Assembly (NCBI GenBank): GCA_964641225.1
Contig: CAZXKC010000001.1
Location: forward strand, 131,602 to 195,601
Source: an uncultured Candidatus Saccharibacteria bacterium
Lineage (GTDB): Bacteria > Patescibacteriota > Minisyncoccia > UBA6257 > 1-14-0-10-44-23
Length of the DNA: 64,000 nt
Direction of reading: 5' to 3'
In this document: in pieces, positions 4,373 to 62,805 of the stretch
Layout of the letters: each line of letters opens with the position of its first letter
Numbering within the stretch: position 1 is the stretch's first letter
Position numbers and translations under genes: made by a program
The notes under the pieces: generated by a model
The model's database searches: none
What the model was told of the DNA's origin: nothing
The model's input: the letters and a program-made list of their open reading frames with translations, nothing else

Positions 4373-5458
4373 ATGACAAGCCGTACTATTCAACTTTCCT
4401 TCTTTTTTATTATCTTTGGCATTACGACGTTGCTGGGTTTTTTCATTTTCAAGCCTTATTTGAACACGCTAGTTCTTGCGGGAACATTTGCAATTATTTT
4501 TTATCCTTTGCACCTTCGTTTAGAACGTAAGTTTGGCGGAAAGCATCCTAGTATTGCTGCAGCGATCACTGTTATCCTTGCCAGTCTAGTCATTTTCGTT
4601 CCCGCTTCGTTGCTTGGTACTCGCGTATACCAAGAGGCAGCAGCGCTCTATCAGCGTCTGAGTGATTCGACCGCGCGTGAACAGGCACCACTACCACCCG
4701 CCTCAGAGAACGCGAGTCCATTCGTGTTACAAATTCGGGAGAAGATCGATAGCGGTATCACAACTTTTATGAGTACTTTGAATAGCTCTATCCATCAATC
4801 TTTTGGTTGGGTGCTTAGTAACGCAGGAGATTTTTCGCGGCGCATTGGTGATATAGGTATTCGTTTCTTTATCTGGTTTTTAGCATTTTATTATTTCTTA
4901 CGCGACGGACATCGTCTTCGCAAAATATTCGTTACCCTGAGTCCGCTTTCCGATAAATATGATAATGAAATTGTTGTCCGTATTACTTCATCTGTTAAGA
5001 GCGTGATCGGCGGATCCCTTATCGTAGCTATTATTCAAGGAGTTGCAGCAGGCGTGGGTATGTGGATTTTTGGAGTGCCATCTCCGGCAATCTGGGGAGC
5101 AGTCGCAGTGCTGGCAGCTCTCGTGCCGACAGTCGGCACCGCGCTCGTTATCTTGCCTGCAGCCGGTTATCTGTTTCTTTTGAGTAAAACAGTGCCAATG
5201 ATTGGCCTGCTTGTCTGGGGACTTTTAGTGGTCGGAATTATCGATAACGTTTTGAGGCCAAAACTCATAGAGCGAGATACAAAAATCCATCCGCTTATCG
5301 TTTTGCTTTCTGTGCTTGGCGGCATTGCCTTACTTGGCCCCGTTGGCTTCCTTATTGGCCCTATCGTTATGAGCCTGCTTTTGGAATTTTTAGCAATTTA
5401 TAATGAGATGATTCTGCATCACAAAAATGCAGCCTTCGAAAACAACCTCTCTTCTTAA
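4373..5458 (+). CDS. AI-2E family transporter (PerM/YhhT-like) membrane protein
   Basis: multi-TM protein with characteristic length/topology; inference from hydrophobicity pattern. Confidence 0.6.
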   Translation: MTSRTIQLSFFFIIFGITTLLGFFIFKPYLNTLVLAGTFAIIFYPLHLRLERKFGGKHPSIAAAITVILASLVIFVPASLLGTRVYQEAAALYQRLSDSTAREQAPLPPASENASPFVLQIREKIDSGITTFMSTLNSSIHQSFGWVLSNAGDFSRRIGDIGIRFFIWFLAFYYFLRDGHRLRKIFVTLSPLSDKYDNEIVVRITSSVKSVIGGSLIVAIIQGVAAGVGMWIFGVPSPAIWGAVAVLAALVPTVGTALVILPAAGYLFLLSKTVPMIGLLVWGLLVVGIIDNVLRPKLIERDTKIHPLIVLLSVLGGIALLGPVGFLIGPIVMSLLLEFLAIYNEMILHHKNAAFENNLSS

Positions 5459-6002: not shown

Positions 6003-6715
6003 AAAAGAAAGTTGCAGTCTTCGACATAGACGGGACTATCTTTCGTAACTCGTTGTTAATCGAGCTTCATTGGAAAATGGTTAAAGAGGGGATTATTCCG
6101 CGCACGACTATCACTAAGATAGATAAGTTGTATTGGCAATGGGTGCGACGAAAGGGAAGCTACGATGACTACTTGTGGTCAGTCATAGAAAATTTTGATA
6201 CACACATTGCGGGAGTGCCTGTTAAAACGGTTGCGAAACTTGCCCGTAGAGTTGTTAAAACTCAAAGCGATATTGTATATCGGTATACGCGTGACTTAGT
6301 TAAGCGTTTGTCGAAAACGCACATATTGGTAGCTATTTCGGGCTCGCCGGAAATCATCGTTAAAGAATTTGCGCGAACTTGGAAGTTTGATTATTTTATC
6401 GGAACTTTGCACGCTACAGAGCGCGGTTATTTTACAGGCGAAAAAAAGTGGGTTGCTTCGGAGGACAAGGCAGCCGCACTTGCGTTTTTAGAGCAGCGTC
6501 ACGGTTTTAAAGTAGGCAAAGGCTCTGTGGGCGTCGGTGACACCGAAAGTGATATTAAGATTTTTGAGTTAGTGGAAAACCCAATTTGTTTTAATCCGAC
6601 AGGGGATTTATATAAGACCGCAGCACGCAAAGGTTGGCACATCGTAGTTGAGCGAAAAGATACCGTGTTTGAAATTAAAAAAGGAAAGGTGCTTCAATCG
6701 CATGGAGAAGAGTAG
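5999..6715 (+). CDS. HAD-superfamily hydrolase (HAD-IB/phosphoserine phosphatase-like)
   Basis: N-terminal VAVFDIDGTI motif I, GDTESD motif. Confidence 0.6.
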   Translation: MKKKVAVFDIDGTIFRNSLLIELHWKMVKEGIIPRTTITKIDKLYWQWVRRKGSYDDYLWSVIENFDTHIAGVPVKTVAKLARRVVKTQSDIVYRYTRDLVKRLSKTHILVAISGSPEIIVKEFARTWKFDYFIGTLHATERGYFTGEKKWVASEDKAAALAFLEQRHGFKVGKGSVGVGDTESDIKIFELVENPICFNPTGDLYKTAARKGWHIVVERKDTVFEIKKGKVLQSHGEE

Positions 6716-7640
6716 CTACGACGTTATCGTTATTGGTGCCGGGCCTGCAGGGTGGAGTGCGGCTACATTTCTAGTACGTGCGAATATTAAGACGCTCGTG
6801 ATTGGTGATTTGGCGCAGAGCGGGCTTGCGGACGCCGCTGATGTGCAAAATTTTGTTGGATTTCCAAAAGGCATCGCCGGTACAGAGCTGCTTGATCAGA
6901 TGCGACAGCAGGCAACTGGGCAGGGAGCAACTTTTTTAAAAGGTGAGGTAACGCATGTGGAAAAGATCAACAATAGACAAGAAACAAAAAACAATTTTTT
7001 GGTACGAACTGCTGCGCGCGAGGAGTTTGTTGCAGAACGTTTGCTTCTTGCGCATGGCGCTAATTTTATTAAGGTGAATTTACCGGGTGAAAAAGAGTTA
7101 GTTGGTAAGGGAATCCACTACTGTGCCCTTTGTGATGGGCCACTCTATAAAGGAAAGGAGGTGATTGTGCTTGGAAATGGTAATTATGCTGCTGAGGAGG
7201 CCTTACAACTTGTCGGGATGGGGGCAAAGGTGAAAATTATTACCCACGCCATAGAACCGAATATTGCGCCGGTGTATCAAAAGCTTTTGGCCGCTCAAAA
7301 AATTTCTCTCACGATCGGTAAAGCAGAAAAATTTGGGCCGGGCATTACAATCTCTTTAAAAAAGAAAGATGGCGTAGTTGAAGAAAAAACTGATGCAGTA
7401 TTTATTGCCTTAGGAGTCGCCTCATCGATGGTATTCGCGCAGAAGCTTGGCTTAGAGATGAACGGTAACTTTTTGAAGGCTGACGAAAACGGTCGCACGA
7501 ATGTTGCCGGTGTCTGGGTTGCTGGTTTAGCGCGCGGCGGAGTTAACCAAGTTGCAAAGTCAGTAGGCGAGGGCGCCTCTACTGCGGTTGATATAATTAA
7601 AGCTATTACTGGTCTACCTCAATATCTAGACCACACTTAA
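6702..7640 (+). CDS. trxB: FAD-dependent pyridine nucleotide-disulfide oxidoreductase, thioredoxin reductase-like
   Basis: YDVIVIGAGPAG FAD motif and redox CALCDG (CxxC) motif; start taken at internal Met. Confidence 0.6.
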   Translation: MEKSSYDVIVIGAGPAGWSAATFLVRANIKTLVIGDLAQSGLADAADVQNFVGFPKGIAGTELLDQMRQQATGQGATFLKGEVTHVEKINNRQETKNNFLVRTAAREEFVAERLLLAHGANFIKVNLPGEKELVGKGIHYCALCDGPLYKGKEVIVLGNGNYAAEEALQLVGMGAKVKIITHAIEPNIAPVYQKLLAAQKISLTIGKAEKFGPGITISLKKKDGVVEEKTDAVFIALGVASSMVFAQKLGLEMNGNFLKADENGRTNVAGVWVAGLARGGVNQVAKSVGEGASTAVDIIKAITGLPQYLDHT

Positions 7641-7644
7641 TAGC

Positions 7645-7753
7645 CGTAATTTTGCGCATTTCGTTGTTGCTTTGCTGCGAACCTCCTTCGCCGTACGACT
7701 ACTGTACGGCTCAGTCGTTTCTCGCTCGCGCCTAGAACTGCATCAAAATTACG
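7645..7753. repeat. ~110-nt structured intergenic repeat element, copy 1 (core GCGCATTTCGTTGT...CCTAGAACTGCATC with terminal inverted repeats)
   Basis: shares conserved core with 27217..27331; flanking and internal stems differ in sequence but remain complementary. Confidence 0.5.
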
Positions 7754-7793
7754 ACTATTATTTCGTTGTCGTTTCTATTATCATTGTAAATGT

Positions 7794-8339
7794 ATGATCG
7801 TGGTGTTTACCGGCAACGGAAAAGGCAAGACAACTGCGGCGCTTGGGGCGGCTGTTCGGGCTGTCGGTCGCGGGCAAAAGGTTCTTATAGTGCAATTTAT
7901 TAAGGGGCCATGGCAGAGCGGCGAGGATTTTTCGACGCAGCTTTTGACCGAGGAGGTTTTGGCAAAAAGCAAAATCGGTAAAGGAGGCCTCACGTTTAAG
8001 AAAATGGGACTAGGCTTTGTTGGTATTTTGGGGGACCAATTGCCGTTTGAAGAACACGTGAAGGCGGCCCAAAAGGCACTTGCGTATATCAAGGAACAAC
8101 TGCCACAGTACAACATGGTTGTGATGGACGAGGTAAATGTCGCCGTGCAGCTAAAACTTATAGCGGCAAAAGAGGTACTTGAGGTATTAGAGGGAATAGA
8201 GGATAGTAAGATTGTCGTACTAACTGGGCGTGACGCTCCGCAGGACTTTTTAGATAGAGCTGATTTGGCGACTGAGATGAAGGAGATTAAGCATCCGTTT
8301 AATAGCGGCAAGTTAGGTAAACTTAATGTTGAATTCTAG
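7794..8339 (+). CDS. cob(I)yrinic acid a,c-diamide adenosyltransferase-like (CobA/CobO/BtuR family P-loop protein)
   Basis: N-terminal VFTGNGKGKTTAALG ... LIVQFIKG motif. Confidence 0.55.
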   Translation: MIVVFTGNGKGKTTAALGAAVRAVGRGQKVLIVQFIKGPWQSGEDFSTQLLTEEVLAKSKIGKGGLTFKKMGLGFVGILGDQLPFEEHVKAAQKALAYIKEQLPQYNMVVMDEVNVAVQLKLIAAKEVLEVLEGIEDSKIVVLTGRDAPQDFLDRADLATEMKEIKHPFNSGKLGKLNVEF

Positions 8340-25942: not shown

Positions 25943-27214
25943 ATGAATAAATTTCTCCAACTCTTCCGAGTTCCTGAGCTTCGCAAAAAACTCCTGATCG
26001 TTGCCGGACTACTTATTTCATTTCGCTTGCTTGCTACAATTCCGGTTCCGGGTATTGATACTGCCCAGCTTGCAAATGTGCTTGGCCAAAATCAATTTCT
26101 CGGCTTTGTAAACCTCCTTTCTGGAGGCAGTCTTTCAAGTTTGTCTATCTTGATGCTCGGAGTCGGTCCGTATATTACCGGGTCGATCATCATGCAGCTG
26201 ATGACCATGATGAGCACCCGCCTGAAGCAGCTCTACTACGAAGAGGGTGCTATGGGTCGTCAGAAGTTTAACCAGTATTCTCGATATTTGATGGTGCCAC
26301 TGGCCTTTTTGTCAGGCTACGGATTTTTAAACTTACTTGCGCGCCAGGGCGTACTTCCGGCGCTCACCGGTTTCCAGTTGATGACGACCTTAGTGATCAT
26401 CACCGCCGGTTCGTGTATTTTGATGTGGATCGGTGAGCTTATCAGCGAGCAGAAAATCGGTAACGGTATTTCGTTGATTATCTTTGCCGGTATCGTTTCT
26501 CATTTGCCGACGACTATACAGCAAATGATCGCCAGCTACACCCCGGACCAGTTGATTACCTATATTGTGATCGCCGTTCTTGCAGTGCTGGTAATTGCCG
26601 GCGTTGTCTTTATTAGTGAGGGCGAGCGCAAAATCGCCGTTACCTATGCCAAGCGCGTGCGCGGCAACAAGATGTATGGAGGCGTCACCAGCTATCTACC
26701 GCTGAAGGTTAACCAGGCGGGCGTGATCCCAATCATTTTTGCTGTTTCAATTTTGCTCTTCCCGCAGCTACTCGCACAGCTGATCGCTGTTTTCTCAGTT
26801 GATCTTTCAGTCTCGATGCAAAATGCGGTGTCGACATTCTTGAATAACCAGGGGATTTACGCGGCGATTTACTTTGTGCTCGTCGTTGCCTTCACCTATT
26901 TTTACACTGCTATCAGCTTTAACCCAGACGAGCTTGCAAAGAACTTGCAGCAGTCGGGTGGTTTTATCCCAGGTATTCGTCCGGGTGAGCCGACGACTGA
27001 TTTCTTGAAGAGTACTTCTGGGCGAATTACCTTTTTCGGTGCTGTGTTCCTCGGCCTCATCGCCATTTTGCCAAACATTGTGCAGATGTTCACCGGTTTT
27101 CAGAGTTTTACTATCGGCGGTACTGCACTATTGATCGTGGTATCGGTTGCGCTTGAAATCGCCAGACAAGTTAACTCTCAGCTGACCATCCGGGAGTACG
27201 ACTCAATCGGCTAA
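25943..27214 (+). CDS. secY: preprotein translocase subunit SecY
   Basis: 10-TM protein, conserved SecY motifs, operon position. Confidence 0.95.
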   Translation: MNKFLQLFRVPELRKKLLIVAGLLISFRLLATIPVPGIDTAQLANVLGQNQFLGFVNLLSGGSLSSLSILMLGVGPYITGSIIMQLMTMMSTRLKQLYYEEGAMGRQKFNQYSRYLMVPLAFLSGYGFLNLLARQGVLPALTGFQLMTTLVIITAGSCILMWIGELISEQKIGNGISLIIFAGIVSHLPTTIQQMIASYTPDQLITYIVIAVLAVLVIAGVVFISEGERKIAVTYAKRVRGNKMYGGVTSYLPLKVNQAGVIPIIFAVSILLFPQLLAQLIAVFSVDLSVSMQNAVSTFLNNQGIYAAIYFVLVVAFTYFYTAISFNPDELAKNLQQSGGFIPGIRPGEPTTDFLKSTSGRITFFGAVFLGLIAILPNIVQMFTGFQSFTIGGTALLIVVSVALEIARQVNSQLTIREYDSIG

Positions 27215-27216
27215 AA

Positions 27217-27331
27217 CTCGCGCATCTGGCGCATTTCGTTGTCGCCGCGCTGCGCTTCTCGTTCGACGTATTTAAAAAATACGCCTCACTCGCTGCTCGC
27301 TAGCTCCTAGAACTGCATCCAGATGCGCGGG
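27217..27331. repeat. ~110-nt structured intergenic repeat element, copy 2 (after secY)
   Basis: conserved core with copy 1; outer IR gcgcatctgg/ccagatgcgc followed by gttttgg (may terminate secY transcript). Confidence 0.5.
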
Positions 27332-27422
27332 TTTTGGTGTTAGTCTGAAATTTATCTAAATATCGTGTTCTGAAAATCAGAGCCGGCTGGTCCCCGAAGG
27401 GATCCGGCCGGTTTCTTGTTCT

Positions 27423-33217: not shown

Positions 33218-33292
33218 CCGAGAACATGTAGCACCGAACCTGGCACCTCCGAAAGGGGGTGCCAGGCAAGGAACTTCTTTCTCTGTACATAC

Positions 33293-33321
33293 TTGACAAA
33301 ATACAATTTCTTTACTATAAT
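33293..33321 (+). promoter_or_regulatory. promoter TTGACA-N17-TATAAT for surface protein 1
   Basis: 33293-33298 and 33316-33321. Confidence 0.5.
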
Positions 33322-33356
33322 ATAAATCAGTAAAAATCGTTAATTGCTTACGCAGT

Positions 33357-57183: not shown

Positions 57184-57870
57184 ATGACTAATAGTCCGGA
57201 TTTAAAAAGCCGTGCAATCACTCTGCGTAAACAAGGGCTTACGTATTCAGAGATTATGGCGCAAATTCCTGTTGCTAAATCAACTCTATCTGACTGGCTG
57301 CATTCGGTAGGCTTGGCAAAACTCCAAAAACAGATTCTTACCGAAAAGAAAAAATTAGGACAACAGCGTGCTGCAGCGGCGAAAAGAACGCAAAGAATAG
57401 AAAAGGAATCTGCGATTAGAGTGGGAGCAAAATCTGAAGTTGCACATTTGATTAAAGACCCTTTGTGGCTTTTAGGTGTCGTTCTCTATTGGAGCGAAGG
57501 CAGTAAGCAGAAAGCATGGACTACATCAATGGGAGTTCGTTTTATGAATATGGATCTGGAGGCCCATAGACTCTTTATAAAATGGAGTAAAAAATATTTA
57601 AATACGAGCCCGGAATATTTTCGGTTTGAAATTTATATTCATGAAAAAGCCAACATTGAAAAAGCAAAAAGTTATTGGTCAAAAAATTTGAGTATCCCAA
57701 CAGAAGAAATTCGGATCTATTATAAAAAGCATAATCTCAACCCAAACAGGAAAAATATACATCAAGATTATTATGGAGTTCTTAGAACATCAATCAGTAA
57801 AAGCACGGATTTAAATAGGAAGATTGCAGGTTGGACTGAGGGTGTGATAAAGTACTTCCAACAGAAATAG
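57184..57870 (+). CDS. hypothetical protein with N-terminal HTH; possible LAGLIDADG-like motif (LGVVLYWSEGSK)
   Basis: LRKQGLTYSEIMAQIPVAKSTLSDWL HTH-like; endonuclease assignment speculative. Confidence 0.35.
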   Translation: MTNSPDLKSRAITLRKQGLTYSEIMAQIPVAKSTLSDWLHSVGLAKLQKQILTEKKKLGQQRAAAAKRTQRIEKESAIRVGAKSEVAHLIKDPLWLLGVVLYWSEGSKQKAWTTSMGVRFMNMDLEAHRLFIKWSKKYLNTSPEYFRFEIYIHEKANIEKAKSYWSKNLSIPTEEIRIYYKKHNLNPNRKNIHQDYYGVLRTSISKSTDLNRKIAGWTEGVIKYFQQK

Positions 57871-62596: not shown

Positions 62597-62633
62597 GCTC
62601 TGAAAGCCCTTGGAGTATAGGGTTTTAGGGTAC

Positions 62634-62662
62634 TTGACAAAATACGACATCGGGTGTATAAT
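62634..62662 (+). promoter_or_regulatory. promoter TTGACA-N17-TATAAT for DGR target gene
   Basis: 62634-62639 and 62657-62662. Confidence 0.5.
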
Positions 62663-62695
62663 ATACATTAGGTCTTTGAAAGCAGAGTTGCTAGA

Positions 62696-62792
62696 TTAGC
62701 CGCACAAATTGGGTTGTTTTTAATCAAAAAATAGACCAATTTGTGCGGCTAAGAACTCACCGTGTGGTGAGAGCCGTGAGTTCTCTTTTTTC
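62696..62792 (+). promoter_or_regulatory. structured 5' leader: 17-bp perfect inverted repeat (ttagccgcacaaattgg / ccaatttgtgcggctaa) then terminator-like hairpin gaactcac/gtgagttc plus TCTTTTTTC
   Basis: read directly; sits between promoter and RBS GGAGGA. Confidence 0.5.
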
Positions 62793-62805
62793 GGAGGAAC
62801 AGCCC

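Follow-up and report, generated by a model that had tools for sequence, protein, structure and literature searches.

Two palindromic copies behind a trxB-like gene and secY

The window, the whole 64,000-nucleotide stretch of DNA analyzed here, contains two in-register copies of a rod-shaped palindromic element of ~125 nt, at positions 7638-7760 (123 nt) and 27212-27336 (125 nt), which are 68% identical over the element. Copy 1 follows a trxB-like ORF (6648-7640; pyridine-nucleotide-disulfide oxidoreductase) and ends 33 nt before the start codon of the next gene, which is cobA/BtuR-like (7794-8339). Copy 2 follows secY (25943-27214), whose product lies near that of Candidatus Harrisonbacteria in a SecY comparison, and is itself followed after 44 nt by a hairpin with a T-tract (27380-27414; -26.6 kcal/mol). 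In both cases the first three bases of the element are the TAA stop codon of the upstream gene. The parts of the two copies are as follows.

7638-7760, plus strand: copy 1, a probable MITE, between the trxB-like and cobA/BtuR-like genes (covariance model, 99.7 bits; fold; inverted repeat)
7638-7654, plus strand: 5' arm of the copy 1 outer stem, a degenerate terminal inverted repeat, TAATAGCCGTAATTTTG, of which 7638-7640 is the TAA stop (inverted repeat)
7654-7667, plus strand: conserved 5' core of copy 1, GCGCATTTCGTTGT (exact match)
7690-7710, plus strand: central hairpin of copy 1, GCCGTAC ... GTACGGC (fold; the helix covaries across the family, helices 4-5)
7731-7744, plus strand: conserved 3' core of copy 1, CCTAGAACTGCATC (exact match)
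7744-7760, plus strand: 3' arm of the copy 1 outer stem, CAAAATTACGACTATTA (17 nt, 94% complementary)
27212-27336, plus strand: copy 2, a probable MITE, in the secY 3' UTR, upstream of the terminator hairpin 27380-27414 (covariance model, 94.4 bits; fold)
27212-27229, plus strand: 5' arm of the copy 2 outer stem, TAAAACTCGCGCATCTGG, of which 27212-27214 is the secY TAA stop (inverted repeat)
27229-27242, plus strand: conserved 5' core of copy 2, GCGCATTTCGTTGT (exact match)
27267-27283, plus strand: central hairpin of copy 2, CGTATTT ... AAATACG (fold)
27306-27319, plus strand: conserved 3' core of copy 2, CCTAGAACTGCATC (exact match)
27319-27336, plus strand: 3' arm of the copy 2 outer stem, CCAGATGCGCGGGTTTTG (inverted repeat)

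An earlier note on this DNA had reported two structured copies of ~110 nt, at 7645-7753 and 27217-27331, placed directly after the stop codons of the trxB-like gene and secY, with shared conserved cores, outer inverted repeats, and inner hairpins. This description holds throughout, with a greater full extent for both copies and with elements that start on those TAA stops themselves. The 14-mers GCGCATTTCGTTGT and CCTAGAACTGCATC each have exactly two matches in the 64-kb window, at the core positions listed above, the quoted inner hairpins (CCGTAC/GTACGG and CGTATTT/AAATACG) are present, and the quoted outer repeats are part of a longer stem of 17 bp with one mismatch per copy (7638-7654/7744-7760 and 27213-27229/27319-27335). 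Both halves of the element are spaced by 19,575 nt from copy to copy, and the gap from core to core is 63 nt in each, so that the copies are in register and their interiors show no net length change. Copy 1 folds with -37.1 kcal/mol (z = -3.95 against shuffled sequences) and copy 2 with -45.5 kcal/mol (z = -3.78), and a covariance model built from relatives recovers both with the scores given above, a scan of the window with this model yielding nothing else above 19 bits. Taken together, the fold z-scores and covariance-model scores place the likeness of the two copies far beyond chance. Copy 2 is also found base for base in an independent public assembly (L001). The only coding content is a mechanical ORF of 41 aa that overlaps copy 1.

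Stable hairpins directly after stop codons, as in both copies here, could be intrinsic terminators of the upstream genes, or terminator-associated sRNAs, which the earlier note had named among its alternatives. However, no T-tract follows either copy and a terminator scan finds no terminator there; a canonical G+C-rich hairpin with a T-tract stands separately, 44 nt downstream of copy 2, and copy 1 lies immediately ahead of the next gene of an apparent operon. Members of the wider family, described below, often lie within operons, and divergent genes flank 13 of 102. We give the terminator reading next to no credence, and the sRNA alternative falls on the same missing T-tract and separate terminator. 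As copy 1 has no terminator nearby and is followed after 33 nt by the next start codon, and copy 2 stands between the secY stop and its terminator, the copies are probably cotranscribed with their upstream genes, copy 1 as an intercistronic hairpin and copy 2 as a hairpin in the 3' UTR that precedes the true terminator.

A family of insertions and its terminal repeats

We searched one genome per bacterial and archaeal species with a gapped pattern derived from the inner portions of the two cores, as the earlier note had proposed doing for related genomes, and obtained 109 stretches, four of which are chance matches (L006, L015, L071, and L091) and the others clearly homologous. This gives ~104 further true copies, and the covariance model reveals ~20 additional ones with diverged cores in the fetched loci, with up to 3 copies per 8 kb. 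By record label, the hosts are mostly Patescibacteria (Zambryski-, Kaiser-, and Harrisonbacteria, Paceibacterota, Minisyncoccia, and Saccharibacteria/Saccharimonadales), together with six loci in Elusimicrobiaceae or Elusimicrobium; single or double cases are assigned by bin label to Myxococcales, Legionellales, Bdellovibrionales, Nitrospira, and Patiriisocius, the Myxococcales-labelled copy being a 64% G+C version of the element. Family members are 120-140 nt long, and one genome (LCCS01) has at least seven copies with exact cores. On a Legionellales-labelled contig (L061:4571-4790), a full copy is directly followed by a partial duplicate of its own 5' half.

Rfam gives no match at the gathering threshold and chance matches only at E <= 10, a scan of viral contigs gives 0 matches, and a consensus copy has no BLAST match among phage and plasmid records. 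Literature searches that combined the lineages with repeat, MITE, and structured-RNA themes, or used the core sequences, returned no description of the element, primers being the only hits. Patescibacteria (CPR) have very small, tightly packed genomes, and in the literature searched on Patescibacteria/CPR repeats, MITEs, and structured RNAs there is little on their repeats and nothing on this element.

Comparison of relatives reveals the element as an insertion. In four comparisons the whole rod, including the outer stem, is present in one relative and absent in the other, and the empty sites have no hairpin; three of these comparisons set L044 beside L040, L084 and L002 beside L021, and L021 beside L084, and the fourth concerns tuf. 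At the tuf stop codon, L021 and L072 carry independent insertions with different outer stems and L084 carries none. The empty sites lack both arms, and we therefore rejected the idea that the conserved part had inserted into the loop of an older terminator hairpin. At secY, four relatives whose SecY is 79-83% identical have no copy within 10 kb on either side of the gene, and SecY is 423 aa long in the window and in all four, from which it follows that copy 2 was gained at the native stop codon with the protein unchanged.

Across phyla, in an alignment of 106 copies, the outer stem is kept as a terminal inverted repeat of 16-18 bp with the consensus TA-RRACTTnCRnAWnYGG, the commonest form of which is TAGGACTTACGCAAACGG. 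We find this form at 120 or more loci in metagenome contigs where, among the matches listed, it caps differing interiors: those of the present family (120-140 nt), of a related family (130 and 188 nt), and of several others. It also bounds an insertion sequence of 1,068 bp (L215:473-1540), whose left end is identical to TAGGACTTACGCAAACGG over 18 nt and whose right end is identical over 16 nt (GTTTGCGTAAGTCCTA). The single ORF of this IS encodes a 338-aa IS701-family transposase (NF049921, transpos_IS701_2; 398 bits against a cut-off of 250), which Pfam DDE_5 and DDE_Tnp_1 also match. Homologous IS copies in other samples and hosts have the same ends, and homologues of the transposase run into the thousands; the IS copies examined lie on contigs that have a G+C content of 54-58% and carry ordinary metabolic genes. 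The ends alone are common to IS and element, and the interior has no counterpart in the L215 IS. The possibility that the element is a remnant of a larger IS, which the earlier note had set against its own RNA reading, thus holds for the IS-like ends and fails for the interior. Within the window, the 5' outer arm of copy 2 matches TAGGACTTACGCAAACGG at 11 of 18 bases and that of copy 1 at fewer.

Among the aquifer metagenomes, differing interiors share a constant terminal repeat, whereas in the family across phyla the interior is conserved and the terminal repeat drifts; with conservation running in opposite directions in the two settings, ends and interior behave as separate modules. Some other sequences within the same ends may be recorded here. 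The commonest interior under TAGGACTTACGCAAACGG ends, among the matches listed, is CGACCTTCACG...CGCGAATCTCATCC, of 130 or 188 nt, which is distantly similar to the window family and can likewise start on a stop codon. Small elements with TAGGACTTACGCAAACGG ends lie at L172:1586-1772 and L172:3579-3706. At L189:8342-10215 (also in L212), 1,874 nt within the same inverted termini lack a transposase and carry genes of ordinary appearance on the other strand; the stretch may represent a composite or a pair of solo ends.

Of the 72 elements bounded by TAGGAC...GTCCTA among the matches listed, 18 have exact 5-bp direct repeats at their flanks, against 0.41 expected, and other repeat lengths give no signal at these elements. 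Four members of the window element's own family (L158, L182, L206, and L224) have intact 5-bp duplications. We had at first favored a TA target duplication of the IS630/mariner type, owing to the enrichment of TA at both ends; it was replaced by the 5-bp duplication outside the element, since the terminal repeat itself has TA as its two final bases, which explains the earlier impression. At the window copies the 5-bp duplication is not recognizable (flanks ACACT/TTTCG and TCGGC/GTGTT).

These duplications bear on a further explanation, in which the element moves as a folded single strand (REPIN/RAYT, IS200/IS605, or attC-like) and inserts 3' of a TAR triplet. Such movement would account for both the stop-codon association and the orientation bias described below: the element in its entirety forms a hairpin whose strand-specific mismatches are conserved, the bias is seen only in copies with a stop codon adjoining their 5' end, and the stops at the junction are TAA in 28 cases, TAG in 23, and TGA in 3. 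However, HUH and tyrosine-recombinase single-strand mechanisms are not known to leave target duplications, and elements with these ends are flanked by exact 5-bp duplications and have ends identical to those of a DDE (IS701-family) insertion sequence. In addition, inspection of the alignment reveals no REP tags of the GTAG/CGTC type and no attC R'/R'' boxes, and the stop lies anywhere from -16 to +11 with respect to the end of the element, so that no single triplet can be the fixed target. Single-strand movement is largely refuted by the duplications, and we consider it very improbable. REPINs are doublets of 20-40-nt REPs with GTAG/CGTC tags, a Y1 transposase, and no target duplication, and attC sites have R''/R' boxes (RYYYAAC ... 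GTTRRRY) and are located in cassette arrays. The present element resembles REP/REPIN sequences in being non-autonomous, hairpin-forming, multicopy, extragenic, placed after genes, and long persistent in its lineage; it differs from them in its 5-bp duplications, its DDE-type IS ends, and an alignment without tags. Compared with attC, its ends are TAGGAC...GTCCTA and the flanking genes are housekeeping genes (tuf, secY, and trxB-like).

The element is a new family of a known class, the MITEs. It is short and non-coding, its 17-bp arms are terminal inverted repeats with a family consensus, its copies are dispersed and polymorphic in presence among relatives, and its ends are common to an autonomous transposon, the L215 IS and its homologues. 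It is likely that both window segments are old MITE copies with IS701-family-type ends. The earlier note had listed a small MITE as one option, and the presence/absence pattern, terminal-repeat consensus, 5-bp duplications in relatives, and IS701-family termini all speak for it. The window copies look old, with unrecognizable duplications, diverged outer stems, and no transposase in the window, and would now be fixed. As a working model, the terminal repeat would be bound by an IS701-family DDE transposase acting in trans, each insertion would duplicate 5 bp of target, and, with ends that read TAG/TAA inward, a copy landing at the end of a gene would replace or follow its stop codon and leave the protein unchanged. 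A tblastn search with the L215 transposase found no homologue in the window or in ~0.8 Mb of element-bearing loci other than L215 itself, so no cognate transposase accompanies the element there, and a search of the genome loci for half-elements or a nearby autonomous copy gave further small copies only. Mobilization in trans is thus a presumption for Patescibacteria, given that the element-bearing loci lack a transposase and the IS copies examined lie in higher-G+C hosts. The occurrence of the same IS-type ends in Patescibacteria and in higher-G+C contigs of other metagenome samples suggests exchange of mobile DNA between unrelated bacteria. One ORF of the window (57184-57870; 228 aa, adjoining a tRNA gene) was considered as a transposase and rejected, having a weak N-terminal HTH match (HTH_23, an IS630-like N terminus; 14 bits) and no DDE domain.

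Bacterial MITE-like repeats such as ERIC/IRU, Correia/NEMIS, RUP, and RPE are 100-200 bp long and have end-to-end stem-loop transcripts and TA termini, and RUP depends on the IS630-Spn1 transposase in trans (Delihas 2008, PMC2229807). The element shares with ERIC, Correia, RUP, and RPE a length of 100-200 bp, the lack of coding content, ends that pair into a long stem-loop, TA termini, a target duplication (seen in relatives of the window copies), interspersion in intergenic or transcribed regions, and a probable dependence on a transposase in trans. It differs from them in its unrelated sequence, in ends that match an IS701-family rather than an IS630 insertion sequence, in a duplication of 5 bp instead of TA, in spanning several phyla rather than one genus or family, in an interior that is conserved and covarying while the terminal repeat drifts, and in that about half of its copies start on a stop codon in one orientation. 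With the IS701-family IS (L215:473-1540) it has in common the identical 18-nt 5' and 16-nt 3' termini and short target duplications, and unlike that IS it has no transposase gene and an interior of its own, the IS copies being in other, higher-G+C hosts.

Covariation, strand asymmetry, and orientation at stop codons

We applied RNAalifold to the alignment of 106 copies, from which the covariance model was also built. The consensus fold is an unbranched rod with a 16-bp outer stem, conserved GCA:UGC and UUC:GAA pairs, two inner stems, and a terminal hairpin; the interior of ~90 nt is itself an imperfect palindrome, and either strand may fold into one long rod. Double changes occur in 30 of the 36 predicted pairs, and 88.5% of cells are paired, compared with 66.5% after shuffling and 33-47% when partner columns are slid by 1-3. 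Cells with double changes number 817 against 254 expected, and one-sided changes are rare next to them. The earlier note had called for a covariance model and a test of covariation, and had taken covariation as an argument for a functional RNA. The covariation is real and very strong, but the pairing is Watson-Crick only: among 3802 cells, 3281 are Watson-Crick, 82 are G-U/U-G, and 112 are A-C/C-A, with no G-U enrichment on either strand. In RNA under structural selection, G-U is normally far commoner than A-C on the RNA's own strand. With G-U and A-C in similar numbers and pairing nearly purely Watson-Crick, the covariation shows the importance of the palindrome, not of an RNA; it is the pattern of inverted repeats kept at the DNA level and includes nothing RNA-specific.

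The two strands are nonetheless distinguishable. Unpaired internal-loop bases are 77% pyrimidine on the plus strand (T 1445, C 1266, A 591, and G 234), and the complementary strand is the more stable one in 100 of 106 copies (means of -52 versus -41 kcal/mol). Position relative to genes is also asymmetric. In 64 of the 106 copies, the 5' core is preceded at a distance of 8-35 nt by the end of an ORF of 90 codons or more, and in 54 of these the distance is 14-26 nt, compared with only 4 cases at 14-26 nt on the other side; that is, stop-abutting copies are nearly always co-oriented with the gene. The predominance of TAA and TAG over TGA at the junctions fits the TAG/TAA reading of the element's end. 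Between co-directional genes, ~45 stop-abutting copies are co-oriented and 3 are not, and copies that do not abut a stop show no plus bias (5 plus versus 10 minus). An origin of the bias in the replication strand is disfavored by these non-abutting copies; GC skew, with positive values for the strand of the element at 79 of 106 loci, did not separate it from gene orientation. DDE transposition with like terminal repeats should be blind to orientation. As the two terminal repeats here are alike and insertion is expected to be orientation-blind, we attribute the bias to selection on the transcript: co-orientation would reflect such selection, as reported for ERIC, rather than insertion chemistry. 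A direction-specific insertion rule is a possible source of the bias as well.

The same asymmetries could be read more strongly, with the rod being primarily a functional cis-acting RNA carried by mobile ends. Transcribed directly behind the stop codon, it would shield the upstream mRNA from 3' exonucleases, modulate termination or the release of ribosomes, or provide a processing site, its conserved pyrimidine-rich loops being putative protein-binding sites. This would agree with an interior that is conserved across phyla while the terminal repeat changes, that is not IS-derived, and whose inner helices all show compensatory changes; 88 compensatory pair changes distinguish copies at loci common to different species, the loops are asymmetric in a strictly strand-specific manner, and the 54-to-4 co-orientation adds to this. 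ERIC provides a precedent, with an orientation-dependent effect on the stability of the upstream mRNA (Delihas 2008, PMC2229807). On the other side, the absence of G-U enrichment on either strand is unusual for a structurally selected RNA, the strand to be transcribed is the less stable one in nearly all copies, Rfam has no match, and close relatives lack the element at the same genes. We regard a primarily RNA-based identity as rather unlikely. A dedicated RNA function on top of the MITE identity is possible, in view of the conservation and orientation.

The MITE reading, which we prefer, does not in its plain form predict the conserved, compensating, non-IS interior, the pyrimidine loops on one strand, or the orientation bias at stop codons. 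A tentative extension, to which we assign a minor probability, is that the interior is a functional module kept across at least three phyla while its terminal repeats were swapped, either as an exapted 3'-UTR element or as a module that makes insertion direction-specific at gene ends. The loops of this module are consistently rich in pyrimidines on the strand that is sense to the abutting gene. In either form, the lineage would be one of MITEs that have adapted to stop codons. An exapted interior would let a selfish insertion sit harmlessly or beneficially on the stops of essential genes (tuf, secY, and ribosomal operons), and could serve to protect mRNA ends or insulate translation in ultra-compact genomes. 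Should the stop-codon orientation rule turn out to be functional, the family would be a testable example of a transposon that has adapted to the 3' ends of genes or been domesticated for them.

The interest of the family lies in its breadth in Patescibacteria, in the IS701-type link to other hosts, and in a stop-codon orientation rule that a plain MITE leaves unexplained. The family and the wider set with the same ends reach 3 copies per 8 kb and are found inside essential operons. Gene calling is affected, because the element supplies stop codons, as are assembly and binning, and RNA discovery based on covariation can be misled, with such rods being flagged as structured RNAs.

Neighboring features and other repeats

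Several further features of the window were recorded. Downstream of secY, in the segment 27423-27780, a perfect sigma-70-type promoter lies on the minus strand at 27772-27743 (TTGACA, an 18-nt spacer, TG, and TATAAT), with a 100-aa ORF under it that has no family match, converges on secY, and shares the hairpin 27380-27414. A weak covariance-model match at 62691-62757 was rejected as a family copy, being an unrelated hairpin with its own promoter and terminator. The surrounding segment (62630-62800) has a promoter-like TTGACA/TATAAT, then a perfect hairpin of 17 bp (62696-62752) and then a second hairpin, this one with a T-tract, and has the appearance of a small RNA gene of its own; there is a comparable promoter at 33290-33330.

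The window also holds a second, unrelated MITE-like element of ~125 nt at 14098-14227, with perfect 21-bp arms (14102-14122 and 14203-14223) and a fold of -57.7 kcal/mol (z = -9.5). Direct TTGAC repeats flank it, and it sits in the -35 box of a promoter-like TTGACA-17-TATAAT that precedes tuf. A third family of palindromic repeats, AT-rich and ~100 nt long, TAATTTCTAATT...AATTAGAAATT, is present in a sister genome whose SecY is 83% identical (L111), where it occupies five spacers in or beside the ribosomal-protein operon (e.g., 698-802, 4538-4640, 7059-7169, 9901-10001, and 13788-13900), and a sixth spacer (1728-1783) holds a shorter related sequence. These repeats run from the stop codon to the next start codon, and the same spacers are 5-20 nt long in L113.
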